Source of the DNA: a bacterium
GTDB taxonomy: Bacteria > Hinthialibacterota > Hinthialibacteria > Hinthialibacterales > Hinthialibacteraceae
Assembly: GCA_963663405.2 (NCBI GenBank)
Contig: CAXXSM010000023.1
Location: 1 to 64,000, forward strand
Reading direction: 5' to 3'
DNA length: 64,000 bases
The notes beneath the pieces were generated by a model. The model was given only the letters and a program-made list of their open reading frames with translations, made no database searches and had not been told where the DNA came from. This document shows, piece after piece, positions 882-17,829 of this stretch. The position numbers were made by a program, and so were the translations under genes. Within the stretch, counting starts at the first letter, position 1; every line of letters starts with the position of its first letter.

Positions 882-1355
882 ATGGCCAAACTAAAGTTTC
901 AAATCTATTTGTCGTTCTCTCAGATATGCGTATTTATAAGTTCATTGGAAAATCCATTCAATTATTGGAGTGATCGTAATTTCTCACAGGGCTTTTCTTG
1001 GAGGCCTGGTAGCGCCTCTTTCAGAGCTTTGACTGAAGACGGGGATCATCATGTATTTCTTTTTATAAATGAACCAGTTCCTTCTTTGCCTACCAACTGC
1101 GTACGTGCATTTAAAGTCCCATTCGAGACTATTGATGGAATTGTAGAAATAGCTAGCATATCCGATTCAACGCAATTAGAAATAACACCAGGACTATACA
1201 CTTTGCGCGTTGAATTTCTGGAACCTTGTCCAGATGGCATCCCAGAAATAAATATACGATTTAATAAGGGCGTTTCTGATTTTAAAGTTTTGAAAGCGGA
1301 TAGCGAGTTAGATATAATAACAGATTTTGACTTGATGGCTAAACCAGCTACTTAA
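882..1355 (+). CDS. ComJ-family protein (competence protein J / putative immunity protein)
   Basis: 157 aa, low GC; SFSQICVF...PFNYWSDRNFSQGFSWRPGSASF and RAFKVPF...EIASI resemble the ComJ family. Confidence 0.7.
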   Translation: MAKLKFQIYLSFSQICVFISSLENPFNYWSDRNFSQGFSWRPGSASFRALTEDGDHHVFLFINEPVPSLPTNCVRAFKVPFETIDGIVEIASISDSTQLEITPGLYTLRVEFLEPCPDGIPEINIRFNKGVSDFKVLKADSELDIITDFDLMAKPAT

Positions 1356-1695: not shown

Positions 1696-3128
1696 CTAAT
1701 TTTGTAGGGGGGTGTTTGAATTCGGGGAGGATATCCAGTCGATTACTCCGTAATGGCGCGCCCAGCGGCAGCCGCCTTCGAAATCATCGCTGAGCATTAT
1801 TCCTTTGGCGATACAATATTTACAATACGATTGATATTTGCAGTCTCCACATACTTCTTCAGTAGGCAGTTGGACGGTACGCCAGCGGCGGGCGTTTTCG
1901 CTGATGGTAATCTCTTCCATTGATTGGTGGAAAATGTTGCCAAACGTGAGATAACTCTCCTCAAGAATCACACAGGGACGGATCTCGCCGGCCGCGCCTA
2001 AAACAAAACTTGTAAATCCAGCGCCACATCCTTGCTCTTCAATCTCATCCAGGCGGGATTGGGGGATAAAGGCCATCATATCCGCGTATTTCTCTTGGCG
2101 AATTTTATCGAATTCTTTTAAGAGTTTGTTTTGTTTGACGCGGGATACATCCCAATTGATCTTTTTTCCCCGGCCCCAAGGTGAAACCGTGTTGTGACTA
2201 AACAAGCGGGCGCCGGCCGATCGGGCAAGTTTGAGGGTTTCTTCAATATCATCCACTGTGTTTTCATACACACACATCGCGGCTCGAACCAAGATCCCTT
2301 GATCGGCTAACAAGCGAATCCCTCGCAGGGTACGTTCCCAACTCCCGGCAACGCCGCGCGCTTCATCATGCAAATGCGCTTTGGAAGAATCCAGGGAGAC
2401 ATTGCCAGACGACCGCGTTCTTTGTATTGACCCAGTTTCTTCGCGATCGCTTCTGTGACCAACGTTGCCGTTGGTTAAAATGCCCAGTGGACTGAACCGG
2501 GGCGCGCAGAATTCGATGATTTCTTCAAAATCAGGATGAAGCAGGGGTTCCCCACCTGTCAATTCAACCGAATGCAGTCCATTTTTGATGAAGAGTTTCC
2601 AAGACCTGTAACAATTTATCTTTTGAGAGGATCTCTTTCCGTGTTGGCCCGGAATTGCAATAACAATGATGACATTGCAGATTACATCGCGTTGTTAGTT
2701 CAATAAGAAGATTCGTCGGCATGTAATATTGATCGCTTCCGGTTACACGCACGGCATGGGCGGAGGAATTTAATTCGTCAAATATATGCAATCGCCCGTT
2801 TTTTTGAAACGAGTTAAAGAAACGGATCGCTGGAATCCATTCATTCATAAAGTCTTTCTTGTAATCATTACAATAGGAGAGAATGATATTGTTGATGTTT
2901 GTCTTGCCGTCGACATATTGCAAGTATCGAGCGTAATCGACGGTGACAAATCCCGATCCTTCTCCATTGAACGTATTCTCTTTATCCGTTTCCGTATACC
3001 AAAAAAGCATTGCTTTATCCGGCATCAGGTGGAGTGAGAGTTTCTTCATTCGCGGATGGATATTTTCCCAGCAATTCGACCGGTGGGATGGAAGGAATCT
3101 GGAGAGTGTTCGTTTCTGATTGAACCAT
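1696..3128 (-). CDS. Radical SAM/SPASM RiPP maturase with N-terminal RRE (AlbA/PqqE-like); frameshifted
   Basis: ORF 2564-3049 has an RRE-like VDGKTNINNII segment and CxxxCxxC (RCNLQCHHCYC). ORF 1696-2562 has TGGEPLLH, CGAG...GEIRPC and SPASM Cys (CGDCKYQSYCKYC). Probable true start is the ATG at 3128 with another indel. Confidence 0.9.
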
Positions 3129-3214
3129 AAAAAACTGCCTTATCTGATATGATATTTATGAATGTAGAGTGGGGCCGCGTCTTGATTAGACGCTGGATGC
3201 ATGTATCTTTTACC

Positions 3215-3330
3215 AGGTGGGTCGATAAGGCGTGGACCCCAACCTACTTCAGGATTTTATGGTGGGCTACGCTTCGCTTTTAGCCCACCCTACTTCTAGG
3301 TGGGTCGATAAGGCGTGACCCACCCTACTT
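3215..3330. repeat. REP-like palindrome cluster between precursor and maturase genes
   Basis: AGGTGGGTCGATAAGGCGTG(G)ACCC...CCTAC occurs twice, flanking GGTGGGCTACGCTTCGCTTTTAGCCCACCCTAC. Confidence 0.75.
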
Positions 3331-3381
3331 CAGTTCATTTTATCTATTCGTTGTGATCTTAATTATAAGGATTTATATAGA

Positions 3382-4029
3382 TTAAAATTCACCTGTTGAA
3401 GGCGCTTTGAAGGAGCCGGCTAATCCGAAGAGGCCGCCAAGTCCTGCGATACCCGCCACTTCAAAATCTGGAATCGGGCCATCGGCAAGACATAAAACAC
3501 AGCCGGAACACGCGGAACAACCTGCGCAGCCGGAAGCCGCGGCGGCGTCATTAGGAATCGGTGGGTGTAATGTATCCGGTGTCGCCAATTGAGCGATGAT
3601 TTCACGAAACGAGACCGTTTGTGAAGACGGTTCACCGTCGATGGGTACAATCAATTCCATCTGCCCTGTGAAGTTTTTCAAGTTTTCAGGTGAAATGATA
3701 TGCGCTGTCGCTTGTCCTTCTCCGGCGGCGTTGTTCATTTCTAAAATGGAGCCAAACACATTTGTATCGCCTTGACGATAAATGTGCATATTCAAGGTCG
3801 TGTCAGCGAAAGGCGTTGTGCAAACTCGAATTCGCTGCATATTTCGCGCTACCAATTGACGATCCAACAGTTTGGCGGCGTCGTTTTGAAAATCGGTTCC
3901 TGGCGCGGCTTGGGCGAATGAATTTTTACTCATAGCGGCTGCGGCGAACAACACCCCTGCGCCCATCATTCCTGACTTTGTAAACATTTCCCGGCGATCC
4001 ATTTTTGTTCCTTCGTTTTGGCTGTTCAT
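3382..4029 (-). CDS. Tat-signal RiPP precursor with C-terminal subtilosin A-like sactipeptide core
   Basis: RBS AAGGAG then MNSQ...; MDRREMFTK twin-Arg plus h-region; C-terminus SGCAGCSACSGCVLCLADGPIPDFEVAGIAGLGGLFGLAG versus subtilosin A NKGCATCSIGAACLVDGPIPDFEIAGATGLFGLWG. Confidence 0.85.
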   Translation of the reverse strand: MNSQNEGTKMDRREMFTKSGMMGAGVLFAAAAMSKNSFAQAAPGTDFQNDAAKLLDRQLVARNMQRIRVCTTPFADTTLNMHIYRQGDTNVFGSILEMNNAAGEGQATAHIISPENLKNFTGQMELIVPIDGEPSSQTVSFREIIAQLATPDTLHPPIPNDAAAASGCAGCSACSGCVLCLADGPIPDFEVAGIAGLGGLFGLAGSFKAPSTGEF

Positions 4030-4052
4030 AGTTATCTCCTTTGATATTTCTG

Positions 4053-4907
4053 TTAATTGGTTTGGTCTATAATGAGCCAATCTCTTACATTTGTGTCGTT
4101 GATATTTATGCAATCCCATGTTCCTGTCTTTTCAATCGGGAAGGTTTGGATCAGTTCCATACAATCCCATTGAAGATTGTCAGGGATTTGTACGCTGACG
4201 CATTGCCAGGAGTTTTCACGGGGCACGTTGGGCGTTGTCAGTAGGTAGAGGCAATCCCATTGGAGGTTGTCGGGGGCTTGTACGCTGACGCATTGCCAGG
4301 AGTTTTCACGGGGCACGTTGGGCGTTGTCAGCAGGTAAAGGCAATCCCATTGGAGGTTGTCAGGGGCTTGTACGCTGACGCATTGCCAGGCGCTTTCTCG
4401 AGGCACGTTGGGCGTTGTCAGCAGGTAGAGGCAATCCCATTGGAGGTTGTCGGGGGATTGTATGCTGACGCATTGCCAGGCGTTTTCTCGTGGTACGTTG
4501 GGTGTTGTCAGCGTGTAGAGGCAATCCCATTGGAGGTTGTCGGGAGCTTGTACGCTGACGCATTGCCAGGAGTTTTCTCGTGGCACGTTGGGTGTTGTCA
4601 GCTGGTAAAGACAATCCCATTGAAGATTGTCCGATTCTTGGATGCTGACGCATTGCCATGAGCGTGATTGTGAGATTGGATCAATTCGAATGATTTCCTT
4701 GCATTCCCAGGTTTGATCTTCTTGCGATGAATCCTGCAATGTCACACAATCCCATTGGAGTAATGAGGGGATTGGTTTTGTGGGGAGAAGTATTTCGCAA
4801 TTACTCGAATCAAAAATGGCGTGAGCTGAATATGAAGATGATAGTAGTAATAATATAATCAAATTTGTAAATAAATTTTGTTTGTATGTCACCCGTATAA
4901 CCTCCAT
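4053..4907 (-). CDS. Secreted W-x-C tandem-repeat protein of unknown function
   Basis: Signal-like IILLLLSSSYSAHA; 30-aa repeat WQCVSVQAPDNLQWDCLYLLTTPNVPRENS; 15 WxC motifs; stop lies 23 nt before the precursor start. Confidence 0.8.
   Translation of the reverse strand: MEVIRVTYKQNLFTNLIILLLLSSSYSAHAIFDSSNCEILLPTKPIPSLLQWDCVTLQDSSQEDQTWECKEIIRIDPISQSRSWQCVSIQESDNLQWDCLYQLTTPNVPRENSWQCVSVQAPDNLQWDCLYTLTTPNVPRENAWQCVSIQSPDNLQWDCLYLLTTPNVPRESAWQCVSVQAPDNLQWDCLYLLTTPNVPRENSWQCVSVQAPDNLQWDCLYLLTTPNVPRENSWQCVSVQIPDNLQWDCMELIQTFPIEKTGTWDCININDTNVRDWLIIDQTN
4161..4658 (-). repeat. Coding tandem repeat, 90-bp unit, about 5.5 copies
   Basis: CATTGCCA recurs at 4201, 4291, 4381, 4471, 4561 and 4651. 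Confidence 0.95.
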
Positions 4908-5097: not shown

Positions 5098-6739
5098 GGG
5101 TGTAACTCGCGCTCCGCGCTATGCAGCCTGTTCCCAGATTTCATTGATCATCTCTCGATATGGATATAACTTATGAACGTTTTCTTGAATACGATGGTCT
5201 TGGAAAGCCTCCCAATCGTCATTGAGAAAGACGGCTCGCAAGTCCAACATGGCTTGAGCGCCTTCGGTCCGCCAACGCATTCCTGTTCCTTCCATTCGAT
5301 CCTTGACTAAGTGACGGCAAGCCCCTTCGACCACCCCACTCCCGATGGGATAGCCAAACGCTAAATAATAATCATAGCGCATATACTCTCGGTTATTTTC
5401 CAAATACGTAATCACGCGCTCCAGCTGTCTCTTTTTTCGCCCCCCGCAGACCTCGCTTGGTTCCCATTTGTCTCAAGCCACCAATCACTCGGCCCACTTG
5501 CCCTTCGAGTAAACGAGTCAGACGGAGTTTCACGAATGTTTCCGCTTCTTCACTCCCTTCCGGAACGAAACAATAGGCGGCGCTCCACAGGCGTTCCATG
5601 ACGTGATAAATATCGATGATGCAGACGGTATCGACTTCATAGGCTTCGGCTTTTTTCCACAACGCCCGTTCCCCGTCCATCAAACAAACGACCGCTTTAT
5701 TTCCAGCTGCATTCCGGATGTTCAGTTCCTCCGCAAACCATTGGAAGATTCGATCTTTTCCGTTGCTCTCTTCGCCTTCCATCTCTCTTGTCAGTTCCGC
5801 CCGCATCTGTTTGTGGCGCGGAACGGGGCGGTTTGCGCTCTGCTCCTTCCGGAAGATTTCATTCACCACGTCCTCCGCCTGACGAGGAAACGGATCGATT
5901 GTATACACTGCGCCTACACACGCTTGACGCTTTTTATTCGCCTTTTCTCCTCGTTTCCGTCTCCCCGGCTCAACCGTCTCTTCCCGCCGCATCGGTACTC
6001 CCTTCCCATCCGCCGTGAGAACTAGAATCGAGCCCTCTTCTTCCGCGGCGGGTGTGGGCTGCGCCCAGCGAAACGCTTCCACCTCTTGCGCCATGGCGCC
6101 GTTCATATATTCCAGACTGCGAACCGACTGGCCAATCCCCAATATCCGTTCCAAGGTTTGACTGGATTGCTGATAAGAGTTTTGCACACAAAACGCCTGC
6201 GACCATTCTTGGAGTAAAAAGGAAAAATCACTTTCGGGTAAATTCAGCCGGGCGTCCAACGGAACCACCTCATGTTTTTGGCTCTCGCGAGTTCCATAGA
6301 CCGTTCGGTTAATCATGATTTCACCAAAGACGGATACATACCGCTTTTCGTATTGCGTGTCCAAGCGGCGTAAGGTTTTCCCGTCCGGCTCAATGGTAGG
6401 ACCGAGGTCGCCCGTTTCCTTGCCGGTCGATCGTCTCTTCCAGCATGATTCGGCCAAGATTCATAAGACCGCTCCATAGCTCTTTCTCGATTTGATCGAT
6501 TGGGATTCCGTTTTCGGCTGCTTCTTTCACCTCATTCCACAACGCGGCAAACTGATCTTTCGACTTGAAAATTTCTCGTTCTTGTTCCATCATCAACCTG
6601 GGGCCTCATTTCAGTCAGGATATACATTGTTTTCATGGACTAATGTTATACCTGTTGAGGCCCTTTTTAACAAGTCATAAATTACACTAACTATAATATA
6701 ATCAATACTTTATGAAATCGAGCTCCGCGGGTTACACCC
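5098..6739 (-). mobile_element. ISKra4-family insertion sequence
   Basis: Terminal IRs GGGTGTAACTCGCG (5098) and CGCGGGTTACACCC (ends 6739), 13/14 match; flanking duplication AATCAATT at 5090-5097 and 6741-6748. Confidence 0.9.
5119..6596 (-). CDS. ISKra4-family DDE transposase (frameshifted across ORFs 6390-6596, 5393-6457 and 5119-5415)
   Basis: ADGKGVPM, LMDGERALW, DIYHVMERLW and GYPIGSGVVEGACRHLVKDRMEGTGMRW motifs. Confidence 0.9.
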
Positions 6740-7698: not shown

Positions 7699-8984
7699 TC
7701 ACACAATGCGACCGGTTCGACGGTCCATCCACCTGGATAGCAGAAGGCTCCAATCCATTGAATGCCTATGGCTGCGACCAAAAGGAATGAAAAGAGGATG
7801 AAGGAATCCCCGCTTGGAGGCGATTTTCGGCCATACCGCCGCTAGGTAGAGAATGAGGAATGGATAGGTTTCAATCTGATATCGCGGACCGTAATGAGAA
7901 TTGCCTCCCCACCAGACAATGTATTTTGAGAAAACAATCAGCATTAGAACCGGGCCGGGGATCGAAAGAGCGATCAGTTTCCAGGTTCGGGATGTCTTTC
8001 TCCATATCGCGATCATCCCCCAAAACGCAAAGAGAAGAAACGGGCTGAAGATCAACAAACCCCGGCTGGGGCTGATCAGCTGACCGGCAAGACCTGTCGC
8101 CAGCGGGGTGGACCAGGAATCACCCCGTACCCGGTCCAGTTCCCAATGGAGAGAGTGCATAACGATATCGCCGCCTTTCCAGGATCCGAAAACGGCGAAG
8201 TTGTAACTTAGAAGCAGGGCGGTAAGGCATCCAGCTGGGAGAATGAAATACCAACAATTGCGTCGATCCAGGCAGAAAACGCTCATGCAAAGGGCCGCCA
8301 TTCCCGCTCCATTGACCGTACGGCATAACACAGCGGAACCCGCCGCTGCGCCGGCGAGCAGCAAAAAAACCATTGTGGGATCGTTAGGTGGAAGAATGGT
8401 TGCGATTGAGGGCCGTTTGTTGGATTCAAATCCAATCGATTGTATTCGAACGCGCGGACTAATGCGTAGAAGCAGAGAGTCCACCAGAAGACGCTGGGAC
8501 CGTGCTGCCAGAGGCTTTGGGCGGCGATGGGCCAGAGGGCTGTGCCAAGACCATACGCCATCGATAGGATGAGGGCTCCAGCCTTATCGATTAAGTATTT
8601 TAATGTCAAGTACATTAGCATGACGGATGCGGCGGTATAGAGCGCGCCGGTGAGTTTTCCGAGATGGGCCCATACATTCTCAAACATCCCAATCCAGATG
8701 AAAGGCGCGAAAATGGGAGCGGCCATCATGCCCGGTAAAATAGGGTAATTTGAAACAATATGACCGCGTTGTTCCGACACATAATAGGGAAGGGAAGGAT
8801 ACGGGATATAGTCGTGCAGGTCATCCAAGAAGATCGAGCCATGTTTAACGATATTCGCGGCGACGAAAATCGTTGGCGTCGGGTCTCCACTGCTGATCTC
8901 ACGCCCGTTAAGCATGTATAACAGAAAGGGGACAAAAAAAATAAGGAGTTTATGGGAATCAATAAATTCAGCGATTGTTTTCAT
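7699..8984 (-). CDS. Multi-pass membrane protein, probable GT-C type glycosyltransferase (frameshifted)
   Basis: SGDPTP, SNYPILPG, AQSLWQHGP, SPSRGLLIFSPFLL and WWGGNSHYGPRY motifs in two overlapping hydrophobic ORFs. Confidence 0.6.
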
Positions 8985-9256: not shown

Positions 9257-9631
9257 ATGTTGACAAAAAGAACTCTCTATCCAATAGCCGTTGTATCGGC
9301 CGGTGTGATGATGTTGCTGAGTGGCTGCGCTGGGATGACAGCCGCGCAGAAAGGCGCTCTTGGCGGCGGTGCGATCGGCGCGGTGGCGGGTCAAATCATC
9401 GGTGGAGACACGGAAGCGACTTTACTCGGCGCCGGCATCGGGGCGCTCACGGGCGCGATCGCAAATGATTACGTCGATCAGCAGAAAGAAGACGCCTATC
9501 ATCAAGGCGCGCGGGATGCGAGTGTCCAACAGACCTATACGACTCCTCCTCCACCAACCGCCGAACCCCGCGTCTACAAAACGGAGACCAAAACGACGAC
9601 GGAGTATTATTACAGCACCTCCCCACGCTGA
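9257..9631 (+). CDS. Glycine-zipper lipoprotein
   Basis: Lipobox LSGC; KGALGGGAIGAVAGQIIGG...GAGIGALTGA. Confidence 0.85.
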   Translation: MLTKRTLYPIAVVSAGVMMLLSGCAGMTAAQKGALGGGAIGAVAGQIIGGDTEATLLGAGIGALTGAIANDYVDQQKEDAYHQGARDASVQQTYTTPPPPTAEPRVYKTETKTTTEYYYSTSPR

Positions 9632-9648
9632 AATAGCCGTCCTATTGG

Positions 9649-9688
9649 AAAACGCCCGGGATTCCTCTTGTGAGTTCCGGGCGTTTTT
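9649..9688 (+). terminator. Intrinsic terminator
   Basis: AAAACGCCCGG...CCGGGCGTTTTT hairpin right after the lipoprotein stop. Confidence 0.75.
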
Positions 9689-9790
9689 GTGTGTAGTGAG
9701 ATTAATCGCGGATTAGATGTGGTCTGGAATTATGCCAGGGCAGAGAAAAGTTAAGGCTCCGGCGTAAACACTGGCACTTGTCCTGTGTAC

Positions 9791-10163
9791 CCATGTTCGA
9801 TCAATCATGGGTGGGAACGCCTGCGTTCCATTGGTTTTGTGGGATTTACGCCAGGACAGAAAAAAGCCTTGTCCTGGGTACCCGGTGTTTGAACTGGGCG
9901 GCCATGTTCGATCAATCATGGGTGGGAACGCCTGCGTTCCATTGGTTTTGTGGGATTTACGCCAGGACAGAAAAAAGCCTTGTCCTGGGTACCCGGTGTT
10001 TGAACTGGGCGGCCATGTTCGATCAATCATGGGTGGGAACGCCTGCGTTCCATTGGTTTTGTGGAATTTACGCCAGGACAGAAAAAAGCCTTGTCCTGGG
10101 TACCCGGTGTTTGAACTGGGCGGCCATGTTCGATCATTCACGGGCGGGACGCCCGCGCTCCAT
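9791..10163. repeat. BIME-like tandem array, three 111-bp units plus a partial unit
   Basis: CCATGTTCGATCA starts at 9791, 9902, 10013 and 10124; each unit holds two different REP-like hairpins. Confidence 0.95.
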
Positions 10164-12558: not shown

Positions 12559-14941
12559 TTATCGCAACAAATCGACGAATAGATTTCCTCGGAGGTTGTT
12601 GATTTGGGATTGGACGGAGAGGTTGCTTTTAAGGAGGATTTCGGCGTTGGCTTGGATGGTGGATTGACGGGCTACGTCGACATCGGTGATGCGGGAGCGG
12701 GACGCGAGGAGGTTTTCCGCCGCGACGGCGAGATTGTCCGTTTCAAGTTCGAGCCGGTTTGTGAACGCGCCGATCTCTTGGCGGATGCTTCCGACTTGAT
12801 TAAGCGCTTCATCGACGATTTGGAGGGCTTCATCAACGCCGCCTTCTTGAGTGACGTCGATATCGTTGAGGCTTCTACCTTCGCCCAGACCCAGCGCGGA
12901 TGGACGCGCGTCTCCGAAGTTAATTCCCAATGTATCCCCTGCGTTGGCTCCGATTTGGAAATTCGCCTGTTCGCCCGCCGCTGAAATCATGACGGTTCCA
13001 TAATCATTCACTCCTTCAAGAGGAACATCCACAATCGCGTCGAAATCGAGGGTCAGCATTTCGCCTGGCCGGATTCCACTTTCAAACTGGACGTTTTGCT
13101 GCCCCGCGCCGAATTGGACTTCGGGGCCATTGTTCAGGCTGCCGGTGAATTCTTCGCGTGTGTTATTGATCGTGTCCGTTCCATTGGTCAGATTCGTTCC
13201 CATGCGGAAGGTGATTTCGGAGGTTTCACCGTCATTATTGTCTTCTCCGTAGAGTGTGACCATTTCTCCCGCTTCGGCGATCTGCGCTGGGCCGCCGTTA
13301 AGACGCACTGTGGCGGTTTCAGCGTTGCCCGCTTGGACGGTGGTTCCGGAATCGGTAATTGTGCCGAAATCGCCGCCGCCTGTGGAACGGTCGTTGACTG
13401 TGAGTGTGAAATTGCTTTGCGACGCGCCCGCGAGATCATCCGTTAATTGGATTCGGCCATCTTCCGTCAACGCGGCTGTGGCGTCTGTAAATCCTCCCTG
13501 CCCGCCAATGCCTCCAGCGGCTTGGGTTTGATCACGCGCGTTCAGTTCATCGATTAGATCCTGCATCGTGGTTGCGGCTCCATCACCGGCGCCAGTGTCA
13601 AGGGTGGAGATCGTAACTGTGCTAGTGAATGTGGAGCCATCAGCGTTGGCTCCATTGATCTGAATGGTATCTCCCTGCGCGAGGGTGGCTCCATTGAATA
13701 CGGAGCCGATCAGGTTTGTGTTCGCGTCCGCCGCAGCTCCAGTCCCGGTTTCAAACGCGATTTGGCTTTCGACAACGCGGTTATTGGCTTCCCTCACATT
13801 TGAGATTTCCATCGTAATTTGGCCGGTATTGAAAGTGGAGCCGGTGAAGGCGGTGACGGCGTTCCCTGCCTGGGCGCCGGAGGCTGCGCCCGCGATGGTT
13901 TCCTGCCGGGTGATTCCAGTTGTGGTTTGGATATCGCCGTTGGCGTTAAGGACCGTGAAATCGATGTTGAAATTCGACACGCCGCTGTCCGCGCCGTTTT
14001 GGAATTCCAGGCGGCCGGTTGTTTCATTCAAACCGGCGTTTGTTTCCCCTGCGGTGTTGCCTGCGGCGGTGTTAATTCCCGCGCCCTGTTCGGCGTTGTC
14101 AATGGTGGATCGGATGGCGGTGGTGAGATCGTCCATCGTCGTTCCCCGCGTCAATGGATAGTGTACCCGTGAATCCCGTCGTTCCATCGGCGAGGGTTCC
14201 TTGAAAGGCGATTGTACCGCCGTTTTCGAGGTTTGCGCTATTGAATGTCAGGCCGGATAACGCATCCGTTCCCTGCGCGGCGCCGCCGGCCGTGTCATTG
14301 AATGTGGAGAGCGTGACCGCGATATCCTGTGTGTTTTGAATACCGGAATTGAGAACCTGTTGTTCGCCGGGCGCTTCGCCCGCGGTGATTTGTGACGCGC
14401 CTTCCTGCGTCATTCGGACCGTGAAGAAATTTTCCTGGGTTGTGAGATCGCTTTCGTCTACGTTGATGCCCTGAGCGGAGGAACCGGTGGGAATACCAGC
14501 GGTAAGAGCCTGGGCGCCGTTGAGAAGCGGATTTTGTCCGAATTGCGTGGTTTCGGCGATACGGTTGATTTCGTCCACATTCGCGTTGATCTCGGTCTGG
14601 ATGGCTTGGAGAGCGTTCTGGTCGTAGACCGCGGTGTTTCCCGCCTGGACGGTCAGTTCGCGGATTCGTTGCAGGCGGTCTGTGATGGAAGATAAACCTT
14701 GATCGGCCACGTTCGCCACGTTGACGCCTGACTGGGCCGCGTCGAAGGCTTCGTTCAGACCGGCGATTTGGGTTTGCAGTTCATTGGCGACCCGCAGGCC
14801 GGACGCGTCATCCGCGCTGCGGTTGATCCGGAGGCCTGTGGAGAGACGCTCCAAGGATTCCTTTAATTGCGGTGCAATGAGATTGTTTAGATTAAAGAGC
14901 GATTGCGCCGCCAAGTTGTTGTTGAGTCTGGTAATGCTCAT
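12559..14941 (-). CDS. fliC: Large flagellin (~790 aa; frameshift near 14140)
   Basis: N-terminal LERLSTGLRINRSADDASGL and LQRIRELTVQA; C-terminal FQIGANAG, RQEIGAFTNRL and ENLLASRSRITDVDVA. Confidence 0.9.
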
Positions 14942-15021: not shown

Positions 15022-17829
15022 CTATTTTGTCTGTTCTTCTTCATTCGTTTCTGTGTTTTGGAGAGCCTTGTTTCGTAAGGAGAAGAAGTCTGTTGGCTCC
15101 TCTTCCGTTAGTGATCCTAAAATGCCCATGCGTGATGATTGATCGAAGATGCCCGCCGTGTGGGGTTGGGGATTGATTCCCCGGCTTTTTGCCGGTGGGA
15201 AGATTCCCGTTTTTGGAGGTGTGTAGATCCCCAGTTTGTTTGACTGGCCCAGCATTCCCGATTCATAGGGAGGGCTGAAGACGGATGGCTCTTCGGAGGG
15301 GGCGAAAATATTGTTTTGTGGTGTGAAAGGGTTTGTTTCCTCTTGGATTTGTTTCAGCATCGGGTCGAGTAGAATATCGTAGAATTTCTCATGTGTGATA
15401 TTCGCTTGGGATAAGATCGCCGCCTGGGCGTTCATTTGGACGGAATTCATTGTGCCTTCAGCGGTCTCTTTGGCGGTATCCGCGTCCACGATCCGTTTTT
15501 GCGCCGATTCGATGGATCGCGAGGAAAAATCGATCAATTCAGCGGCTTCTTCCATTCCGGTGGCGATCGCGTCGATTTGTTCTCTTGCCTCTTTCATTTG
15601 TTGCAGCGCCTCCTCTACGATTGTCATCGCCAATTCCGCGCCTGATACGGTGCTGACGTTAATCGTCCCCAAATTGGCGGCGTCCGTTCCAAGATTGTCT
15701 ACATTCAGATTCGCCAGCGCAAATTGGGTGGAATTCCCTTTGCCCGATCCGATTTGAAAGTTCAGTTCGCGGCTTGTGGCGGAGAATATGATCTGCCCTA
15801 CGTTTTGTCCGTTGATCGACGTTGTTTCAACGTATGCGTCAAAGTTCAGCGCGAGCCGTTGGGTGGAAGAACCTGAATCCGATCTTGTTGTGAAGATCAC
15901 ATTCTGCTCTCCCTTATGAAATTGGACGGCGCCTCCACCGCTTAAGGCGCCTTCGTATACATCTTCCGTGACGTACAATTCATCTCTCCCTTCCACAAGT
16001 CCGCTTCCAATTCGAAATGTGATTTCCGGGGTGGTTTGACCGTTCTGCGCGGAACTGGTTCCTTGAAGTTTTACCATCTGACCCGCTTTCACCGTTGTGG
16101 CGGCTCCACCATCGACGGAAATCGTGGCGGATTCCCGGTTGCCTTCATTCACGATTTTCGACCGGATCGCCGTGACGCCTTTCTCGGCGGTGGAGGCGGT
16201 GTTTGAGAAGACTGGATTGACAGGGCCGGGGTATTTGGAGTATTCATCAAACCGGCTGACAGTAATGGTGAATTGGGTTGAAGAGGAACTGGAGATGTCG
16301 TCTTCCAATACAATCCGTCCGTCATCGCTGAGCGTGGCGGCGGCATGGTTGAAGCCGAATCCTTCCCAACTGCGGTCCCGCTGACCGAGTTCGTAGATTA
16401 GATCGGAGAAGGTTCGGATCTTCGCTCCTTCCATGTCGCTGGAGAGGACGATGCTGTTGTTGCTTGTGCGTGGCGTCAAGCCGTCGATGACATAAGAGGA
16501 GGTGAATTGCGTCCCGTCGGGATCGGTTCCTTGAATGCGGAGGACATCCCGGTCGCGCAAGGTCACGCCGTTTATCGTTGAATCGCGGAGCAGATCTGTT
16601 TGTTGCGCGTATTCCCCCTTTGCGTTTAGGAAGACCTCATCGGATACGATGACGCGGCTGGAGGCTTCTTGAACGTTTGTGACTGCGATGTCATATTGGC
16701 CGCTGGAGAACGTCGAGCCGGTCAAATGGCGGTGGGGCTTGTTGCCGATTTTGGCGTTGGTTCCCGATGTGGCGACGGCTTCATTGGCGATTGTACCGGA
16801 TCGCTCGATTCCGAACGTGGTCTTGAGTTGTCCTTTTCCACGGCTTCCGTAGGCTTGAATGCCGAAACTGATGTCGAATTGGGAGAGGGAACCCGCTTGT
16901 CCACTAGTGAATGTGAGACGCTTTGTCTTCTCATCAAAGCCTGTGTTGGTTTCTTGAAGATTAGAGCCGGTCTTCGTGTTGATATCTGTTCTTTTTTCGC
17001 TTTGTCAATCTCTTTTTGGATGGTCTCGATAAGATCTCCAATGGATGTACTTTTTTTGATTTTTAATTCACCGGAGAATTCGGTCGATCCATCGGCGAGA
17101 ACGCCTTTGAATACAAGCGTGTCTTTATCGGTCCAATTCCACACGGTTGACAAACATCCCCAGAAGATCACTTTCTATGTTCTCCGCGCTTTCGAACTGG
17201 GCGACGGAGACGGCGATATCGGTGGATAAACCGACGCCTGTGTTATAGATTTTATCTTTACCGGTTTTGATCTGTTCCGAGCCTTCCTGTACTTGTTCGT
17301 ATGTCAAGGTAGCGCTGCCAGTATTCAAGGTGGACGATGTGGGGCCACTCGCGACGCTGACGCCGGATTGTTGGTTTCCCGCCTTGATTTCCACTGTGGT
17401 TGTGAAAGAGCCATCGAGCAGAGACTGTTTACCGAATGTTGTATTCTTAACGATGGAATCAAGGAGCTGGCGCGTTTCATCGATTTCGGCCTGGAGAAGG
17501 AGACGGGAATTGGGATCGGCGGACTGCGCCGCGGAGGAGGCTTTCTCCCGGATTGATTGTACGTGCTCGATCATTTTGTCGATCGCGTTTCGGGCCGTGT
17601 CGGCGATATTGTATCCTTCCTGCGCGTTGATAGCCGCTTGGTTGAGGCCCCGGAACTGACTTTCGAGCTTTGTGCCAAGAGAGAGTCCAGCGGGATCGTC
17701 ACCCGCTTGATTGATGCGGACGCCGGAACTGACACGAACGATGTTTTTTTGCAGAGCGTTATCCGTCTGGGTCAAATTTCTGACGATCCCAAATGCGGCC
17801 GTATTGAATCGAATACTCTCGACCACCAT
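15022..17829 (-). CDS. fliC: Large divergent flagellin-like protein (~930 aa; several frameshifts) with C-terminal extension
   Basis: RVSSGVRINQAGDDPAGL; FQIGSGKG; SAQKRIVDADTAKE...QAAILSQAN, followed by a ~120-aa tail. Confidence 0.8.

Follow-up and report, generated by a model that had tools for sequence, protein, structure and literature searches.

The closest described systems to the locus treated here are sactipeptides, in which Cys thiols are joined to the alpha-carbons of acceptor residues through thioether (sactionine) links. Subtilosin A of Bacillus subtilis, made by the SboA and AlbA system, has Phe22, Thr28 and Phe31 as acceptors, and thurincin H carries four contiguous nested links (C13-N19, C10-T22, C7-T25 and C4-S28); acceptors on record for sactionine links include Phe, Ala and Gly alike, as in Ala25 of Trn-beta and the Cys-Gly link of streptosactin (PMC8172795). 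On large proteins, few enzymatic thioether cross-links have so far been validated (PMC13692751, 2026). Here, we describe a three-gene cassette in a 64,000-nucleotide stretch of a genome from the bacterial phylum Hinthialibacterota (assembly GCA_963663405.2, contig CAXXSM010000023.1, positions 1 to 64,000; hereafter the window). The cassette encodes, in this order, a secreted protein with W-x-C repeats (the WxC protein), a precursor with a subtilosin-like core at its C-terminal end, and a radical S-adenosylmethionine (SAM) enzyme.

Translation of the minus strand of 3415-3534 gives SGCAGCSACSGCVLCLADGPIPDFEVAGIAGLGGLFGLAG, which comprises residues 166-205 of the open reading frame (ORF) 3382-4029. 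Five Cys residues (C168, C171, C174, C177 and C180) stand at exact i+3 spacing and are followed by DGPIPD at residues 183-188; the pattern noticed in an earlier, sequence-only reading of the window is borne out when the codons are read on this strand. The segment matches the Pfam family Subtilosin_A (PF11420) with an E value of 8.1e-11 (42.4 bits against a cut-off of 25), residues 170-202 aligning without gaps to profile positions 3-35, and this is the single match above the cut-off in the whole 8.4-Mb genome. Because of this match, the i+3 Cys pattern is not due to chance, and by its family profile the core is a true member of the subtilosin family. In the ungapped alignment, profile positions 4, 7 and 13 are taken by C171, C174 and C180, position 1 by C168 and position 34 by F201; among the equivalents of the subtilosin A acceptors, F189 corresponds to Phe22, and positions 28 and 31 are Ala195 and Gly198. 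C177 occupies profile position 10, as that reading had stated in identifying the equivalent of Gly10 as a Cys. Each predicted acceptor (F189, A192, A195, G198 and F201) is directly followed by a small residue, and the hydropathies of the two arms are 1.59 and 1.43. In a comparison with related strains (runs X2 and X3), all 4 listed substitutions in the core were synonymous and 12 of the 21 listed outside it were non-synonymous, with 10 further substitutions beyond those listed.

Comparison between the window system and that of subtilosin A revealed that (i) the two share the PF11420 family, the turn D-G-P-I-P-D-F-E, donors at positions 4, 7 and 13, Phe at position 22, and an adjoining radical SAM/SPASM enzyme with AlbA as its top family; (ii) the window core has five Cys instead of three, the extra ones at profile positions 1 and 10, and Ala and Gly in place of Thr28 and Phe31; (iii) a 165-residue N-terminal extension replaces the short leader found in the relatives P0022 and P0037, and a C-terminal tail is present; (iv) the cassette contains no AlbB-G-type genes, and its radical SAM enzyme scores far under the AlbA equivalog cut-off; and (v) the host belongs to a small candidate phylum (NCBI label Omnitrophota, at the related locus L001), not to the Firmicutes. 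On these sequence comparisons the window precursor lies inside the Pfam subtilosin family and outside the sbo-alb system. The hairpin predicted here is also like that made by ThnB in thurincin H, being nested, with Cys at every i+3 donor position and acceptors at i-3 steps; thurincin H differs in its four links, its shorter turn, its lack of a sequence family match and its release as a 31-residue peptide.

The sequence-only reading had paired the five Cys, from inner to outer, with F189, A192, A195, G198 and F201. This nested pairing is geometrically possible, with a period of 3 on both arms and all five Cys conserved. A companion claim, that both arms are longer than those of subtilosin A by exactly 3 residues, depends on the alignment chosen. 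In the ungapped Pfam alignment the five-step ladder fits the 35-position frame without insertion, and the 3-residue excess appears only when the terminal GLFGL motifs are aligned instead, for example against the three-Cys relative P0037. Both alignments work because the acceptor arm has period 3. The symmetric extension, which had been offered as support for a hairpin, is a matter of alignment and supplies no separate evidence.

A comparison across the family, in which the sequences were anchored on the Asp of D-G-P-I-P-D and the donor arm was read in steps of three, revealed a graded series of ladders. Of 46 distinct cores, three Cys are present in 21 (the subtilosin pattern, step 2 being Gly or Ala) and four in 12; another 12 extend to step 5 (11 of them with five Cys), and 1 has six; P0024, which stands outside these 46, has seven Cys and a turn one residue longer. 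In all 46 cores and in P0024, the length of the C-terminal arm suffices for nested pairing: four-step cores mostly have 13-15 residues where 10 are needed, five-step cores at least 14 where 13 are needed, the six-Cys core 18 against 16, and the seven-Cys core 22 against 19. Arm-length covariation, which had been named in advance as a check, is present, arm length tracking ladder depth among these related sequences (Spearman 0.70, n=44; 0.51 for the 35 short forms). The acceptor arm itself has a period of three: arm indices 4, 7, 10 and 13, which immediately follow predicted acceptors, hold small residues in 33/33, 29/33, 26/33 and 19/25 four-step cores and in 12/12, 12/12, 12/12 and 11/12 five-step cores. 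The residue that would face step 2 is Ala or Gly in 23 of the 27 cores without Cys at that step and in 10 of the 25 with Cys there, a bias which fits two positions facing each other. The nested-ladder inference is reasonable and partly supported, having survived every sequence test applied to it, and is unproven. As for outlying members of the family, P0019 has six Cys at i+3 spacing; in P0024 (216 amino acids, aa) and P0008 (373 aa) the core stands behind an N-terminal part that looks PqqD-like (weak matches only, to PqqD with E 0.062 in P0024 and to PaaA-like_N with E 0.1 in P0008), and P0008 runs on into a long repeat, rich in Cys, Asp and Tyr, at its C-terminal end.

More surprising than the ladder itself is the architecture in which the core is set. 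The core sits in the C-terminal 50 residues (the C-terminal fifth) of a 215-aa protein, not in a small peptide gene, with 165 residues before it and 10-13 after. The longest ORF reads from 3382 to 4119; the start was set to the ATG at 4029 by the AAGGAG motif and by the conserved Met-Asn start that homologs P0002-P0004 share with the window precursor (P0001). Over 3266-4217, a short-read contig (run X1) shows 0 differences from the window. An internal start at Met124 as the origin of the main product was rejected, the 123 upstream codons being conserved in frame behind a strong ribosome-binding site; the record P0035 (92 aa) begins at the equivalent Met, and Met124 may serve as a second start. 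An AlphaFold 2 model from a six-sequence alignment has a mean predicted local distance difference test (pLDDT) score of 56.5 and contains one helix and a six-stranded sheet at residues ~50-148, with block means of 64-88 for about residues 41-140. Foldseek on the PDB with the whole-protein model gave no match at E <= 0.001; a wide VIA search with the whole model gave a best Z of 6.6, to a pseudopilin, which is within the range for common arrangements and is no clear fold match. The ~110-aa N-terminal domain matches no Pfam or NCBIfam family, and the ESM Atlas yielded no usable match for it. Within this domain, C70, P73-F74 and H82 (residues 70-82, window 3784-3822) are conserved even in long forms with as little as 21% identity.

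Among 5.8 billion proteins, the search found three full-length homologs, which share 52-54% identity; all are 209-210 aa long and match PF11420, and NCBI names one of the three a "subtilosin A family bacteriocin". When 1.84 billion representatives were searched with a profile, the further finds were P0005 (225 aa) and P0007 (207 aa), both distant long forms with RR near the N-terminus and five Cys of identical spacing, and about two dozen short precursors of 43-105 aa. The residues that do not vary across the six long forms, with identity to the window precursor down to 21%, are R12, R13, the five Cys, L181, D183, P187, D188 and E190. In several short multi-Cys relatives an F-[DN]-P motif stands 11-18 residues ahead of the first Cys; at the same distance 4 of the 6 long forms have [FY]-P-D-P, P0003 has F-R-D-P and the window precursor T-P-D. 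This has the look of a short precursor joined to the rear of an exported domain.

The N-terminus of the window precursor, read by eye, contains D-R-R-E-M-F-T-K, a Gly/Ala-rich h-region (mean hydropathy 1.24) and A-Q-A, and R12-R13 are kept in 6/6 long forms. The genome encodes TatC on contig C91, where two reading frames match PF00902 with 129.5 and 93.3 bits. From these features, the precursor somewhat more likely than not has a twin-arginine signal and would be exported by the twin-arginine translocation (Tat) system. In a further member of the family, P0031 (165 aa), a core of four Cys is preceded by RR, a hydrophobic stretch and a lipobox-like G-A-G-C, which suggests that export signals were joined to subtilosin-like cores more than once.

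The radical SAM enzyme is read in three pieces in the window, of which ORFs 2564-3049 and 1696-2562 meet at a run of five A and, taken together, have AlbA as their top NCBIfam family. The window was compared with assembled contigs only. The X1 short-read contig (1707-3286) is without one base each at 2406, 2413, 2465, 2582 (the A run) and 3041, and likewise at five intergenic places (ten in all within 1707-3286); an X3 contig, from another study, likewise is without the bases at 2406, 2413 and 2465. Removal of the five in-gene bases by a script gave one 475-aa ORF from the ATG at 3128 to a stop at 1696, which shares 60% identity over 454 aa with the intact 462-aa orthologue at locus L001 and has CxxxCxxC at residues 148-155 and seven C-terminal Cys. 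Since the five extra bases are absent from the short-read contig and the gene is whole at loci L001 and L022, the gene is very probably intact and its split the result of insertion errors in the assembly. The intact orthologue has Radical_SAM and SPASM domains; its best NCBIfam family is AlbA (NF012164), at 203 bits against 118 bits for the next family, and the AlbA model aligns from profile position 48, so that the N-terminal region is included. There is no Pfam match to PqqD, and the closest solved relative is the sactisynthase SkfB (E 1.4e-26). Judged by these profile scores, the enzyme is AlbA-like, a distant relative and not an AlbA equivalog. Single-base insertion errors seem to be numerous in this assembly. 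Other genes of the assembly are also split into overlapping ORFs in different frames, among them two flagellin genes (N- and C-terminal halves), a membrane protein and TatC; places suspected of insertions are 12559-14941, 15022-17829, 7699-8984 and G000:C91:6426-7236. Apparent pseudogenes in this genome are untrustworthy without the reads.

Table 1. Positions of the cassette genes and of the parts of the precursor in the window.
Feature	Position	Strand	Remarks
WxC-repeat gene, 284 aa	4053..4907	minus	Sec-type signal, ~15-aa W-x-C repeats; directly upstream of the precursor
Precursor gene, 215 aa + stop	3382..4029	minus	ATG at 4029; AAGGAG 6 nt upstream
Signal-like N-terminus, residues 1-41	3907..4029	minus	Polar n-region, R12-R13, h-region, A-Q-A before residue 42
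N-terminal domain and linker, residues 42-165	3535..3906	minus	Linker ends in a conserved segment before the first Cys
Subtilosin-like core, residues 166-205	3415..3534	minus	From Pfam PF11420 match and sequence
Parts of the core			Donor arm C168-C180; turn DGPIPD 183-188; acceptor arm 189-205, Gly-periodic, hydrophobic
Cys codons	C168 3526-3528, C171 3517-3519, C174 3508-3510, C177 3499-3501, C180 3490-3492	minus	
Predicted nested acceptors	F189 3463-3465, A192 3454-3456, A195 3445-3447, G198 3436-3438, F201 3427-3429	minus	Subtilosin A register
C-terminal tail, residues 206-215	3385..3414	minus	Non-conserved; homologs' tails vary in sequence and length
Repeat-rich spacer, precursor to radical SAM gene	3208..3333	.	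83-nt direct duplication; hairpin like a repetitive extragenic palindromic (REP) element at 3258-3292, 12-nt stem
AlbA-like radical SAM/SPASM gene	1696..3128	minus	Pieces 3015-3128, 2564-3049, 1696-2562

The cassette occurs in 3 of 35 genomes of the phylum (G000, that of the window; G015, with locus L001; and G016). The WxC protein, the precursor and the intact radical SAM enzyme have 195, 210 and 462 aa at L001 and 255, 209 and 463 aa at L022, and the flanks are unrelated. The WxC gene lies directly upstream of the precursor at all three loci (9384-9971 at L001 and 5493-6260 at L022). In the window its product contains two ~15-residue units in each 30-aa repeat, encoded by a 90-nt DNA period (4162-4662, 5.6 copies, 90% identity). 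One further homolog of the WxC protein was found among the 5.8 billion proteins, and it has no credible Pfam or NCBIfam family and no usable match in the ESM Atlas. A complex prediction of the mature precursor with the WxC protein gave a median score of 0.08 against a mark of 0.32, which speaks neither for nor against binding. No peptidase or transporter gene was found in the cassette or within about 5 kb at the three loci. A metagenome scan for relatives gave 6 loci, none with the long form; one of the classical type (L023) has tandem short precursors, a radical SAM gene and, immediately behind it, two ORFs (one with HxxEH) and a membrane protein.

The spacer between the precursor and radical SAM genes holds a REP-like element that is dispersed in the metagenome, since the summed X1 contig depth over 3208-3333 is about 742 against 3-5 around it. 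An X2 contig from a related strain skips 84 nt of the spacer, and the L001 spacer has 47 nt. Promoter and terminator scans found sites no more numerous than in shuffled sequences. Convergent with the radical SAM gene is a gene for a ComJ-like protein (882-1355, plus strand; PF11033, E 1.5e-16), which is not found beside the L001 and L022 cassettes. Elsewhere in the window, an intergenic-looking region at 9791-10163 contains a 111-nt tandem repeat (3.4 copies, 97% identity).

Family membership, gene order, conservation of the Cys residues and the presence of TatC in the genome are established, and the enzyme gene is very probably intact; from these we infer the chemistry at each of its steps, how many links form, export, and what becomes of the N-terminal domain. 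In the course that we propose, the adjacent AlbA-like radical SAM/SPASM enzyme would take an alpha-hydrogen from acceptors on the C-terminal arm, in the cytoplasm, and, beginning at the turn and working outward, would link these acceptors to Cys thiols on the N-terminal arm (C180-F189, C177-A192, C174-A195, C171-G198 and C168-F201). The outcome would be a nested hairpin with three to five thioethers, five being the most likely number. The stapled protein, which could not be threaded unfolded, would leave through Tat by means of its twin-arginine signal, and signal peptidase may cleave it after residue 41 (A-Q-A) to give a periplasmic protein of ~174 residues that retains the hydrophobic stapled hairpin as a membrane-active or membrane-anchoring tail. 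Head-to-tail cyclisation is not expected, because both ends are blocked and the cassette has no cyclising peptidase of the AlbE/AlbF type. The sequence-only reading had ascribed such a block to the C-terminal tail; the tail is indeed present, and the 165 residues on the N-terminal side would stand in the way too. We lean modestly towards this course as a whole, with nested sactionine stapling in the cytoplasm, Tat export and no head-to-tail cyclisation. Thioether formation by the neighbouring enzyme is quite probable, whereas the presence of all five links in the nested register falls somewhat short of an even prospect, and the prospect that the product stays a protein is close to evenly balanced.

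The ladder may be occupied only in part, with C171, C174 and C180 or another subset forming thioethers, and with C168 and C177 free, joined in a disulfide after export or bound to a metal; we hold this to be distinctly unlikely. It would agree with subtilosin A, for which donors are proven only at profile positions 4, 7 and 13, and with SKF, which has one thioether plus a disulfide (both PMC8172795), as well as with the further out-of-register Cys in two close homologs and with the non-discriminating residue type of the fifth acceptor. Against this, the invariance of C168 and C177 equals that of the other three Cys in 6/6 long forms, five-Cys cores make up 11 of the 46 and keep the period-3 acceptor arm to index 13, and thurincin H is a natural, fully occupied i+3 ladder of four (PMC8172795). 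Alternatively, the five Cys in their C-x2-C run could bind an Fe-S cluster or a metal in a Tat-exported redox protein that has no thioethers, as their resemblance in spacing to ferredoxin-type motifs might suggest. Tat substrates are often cofactor proteins. This is nevertheless very improbable: the aligned Cys of the homologous peptide are proven thioether donors, a sactisynthase-like radical SAM enzyme with an AlbA-like N-terminal region is conserved next door, and the same core occurs in peptides of 43-60 residues without any signal.

The fate of the N-terminal part separates our preferred course from that of a classical bacteriocin with an oversized leader, in which the ~165 residues would be removed by an unlinked protease to leave a sactipeptide of 40-50 residues, perhaps trimmed and cyclised in the manner of subtilosin A. 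The F-[DN]-P and [FY]-P-D-P motifs ahead of the first Cys, which give the impression of a short precursor attached to the rear of a domain, would suit such an origin. Large protein-like leaders are known in other classes of peptides that are made on ribosomes and modified after translation (RiPPs). Furthermore, every characterised sactipeptide is a released peptide (PMC8172795). The absence of a peptidase or transporter gene from the cassettes and their surroundings, which contrasts with L023, argues in the other direction, as do the predicted conservation of the N-terminal domain as a folded unit and the variable C-terminal tails, which to judge by their sequence are uncleaved. We consider the oversized leader unlikely, and a released peptide of any kind rather unlikely.

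Several observations weigh against the stapled, Tat-exported protein that we prefer. The enzyme scores 203 bits against an AlbA equivalog cut-off of 850, and its regiochemistry could differ. The AlphaFold 2 model has a pLDDT <50 over the core and builds it as helices, and such a model cannot represent thioethers. Disulfides are possible with the sixth Cys, C70, in the N-terminal domain, and also with the additional out-of-register Cys of the two close homologs. The sequence-only reading had allowed for up to five crosslinks, and here the residue type of the outermost acceptor does not discriminate five-step from four-step cores: arm index 12, the fifth acceptor, is aromatic in 7/12 of the former and 16/33 of the latter. 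The length correlation comes from related sequences, and its strict test falls on two members with at least 6 Cys. On the side of export, the TAT-signal hidden Markov models (HMMs) PF10518 and TIGR01409 do not match the window precursor, and the sole TAT HMM signal is a sub-threshold TIGR01409 match in the distant homolog P0005 (14.6 against 16.7 bits). The family is also rare: of 5.8 billion proteins, four reach 52% identity or more.

The combination of features has partial counterparts elsewhere. In QhpC/QhpD, from quinohemoprotein amine dehydrogenase, and in the newly described CrpA/CrpC, from Methanococcus voltae, a SPASM radical SAM enzyme makes several Cys thioethers in a protein or protein subunit that is not released as a peptide, as is proposed for the window precursor; they differ in having beta/gamma-carbon links (ranthionine) and no subtilosin-like hairpin, and no Tat signal is reported for them in the available part of PMC13692751. 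The window precursor is to be set beside two further groups. NHLP and Nif11-type RiPP leaders, like the N-terminal part of this precursor, place a long folded part before a short modified core; to our knowledge, they lack an export signal, have about half the length and are cleaved at Gly-Gly by a transporter-linked peptidase. Neither such a Gly-Gly site nor such a peptidase is seen in the window system. The small subunits of Escherichia coli hydrogenase and formate dehydrogenase combine a twin-arginine N-terminus with a hydrophobic C-terminal segment, as the window protein is predicted to do. In these C-tail-anchored Tat substrates of E. coli the tail is a single unmodified helix, whereas in the window protein it is a predicted Cys-laddered hairpin with a dedicated radical SAM enzyme.

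In the open-access literature, neither a sactipeptide or RiPP precursor with a twin-arginine signal nor a ladder of five or six sactionines was found described. Of the open-access papers found for such a signal, none looked relevant by its title or the beginning of its abstract, and PMC3237569 was irrelevant on closer reading too; five or six sactionines gave no match, and the open-access matches for five or six thioethers concerned, by their titles or the beginnings of their abstracts, lanthipeptides, PapB or unrelated topics. Sactionine chemistry is to date known only from small bacteriocins that are released. We tentatively put forward, as a speculation more doubtful than the steps on which it builds, that the cassette makes a "sactiprotein", a five-rung sactionine hairpin on the tail of a folded protein, routed through Tat precisely because it is cross-linked, with the WxC protein as partner or immunity factor. 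If this were true, the hairpin would be the longest nested sactionine ladder described, extending sactionine links from three or four to five, and to six or seven in relatives, and the precursor would be the first RiPP-type substrate with an export signal of its own, in place of a leader peptidase and an ABC exporter. The WxC-repeat protein would then be the periplasmic partner or the immunity factor of the stapled protein. With three genes, the cassette is of a size that can be rebuilt, and it would offer a natural test of Tat with covalently stapled substrates. Sactionine chemistry would, in that case, also extend from Firmicute peptides into a diderm candidate phylum, and from released peptides to a protein-borne module with its own export signal.

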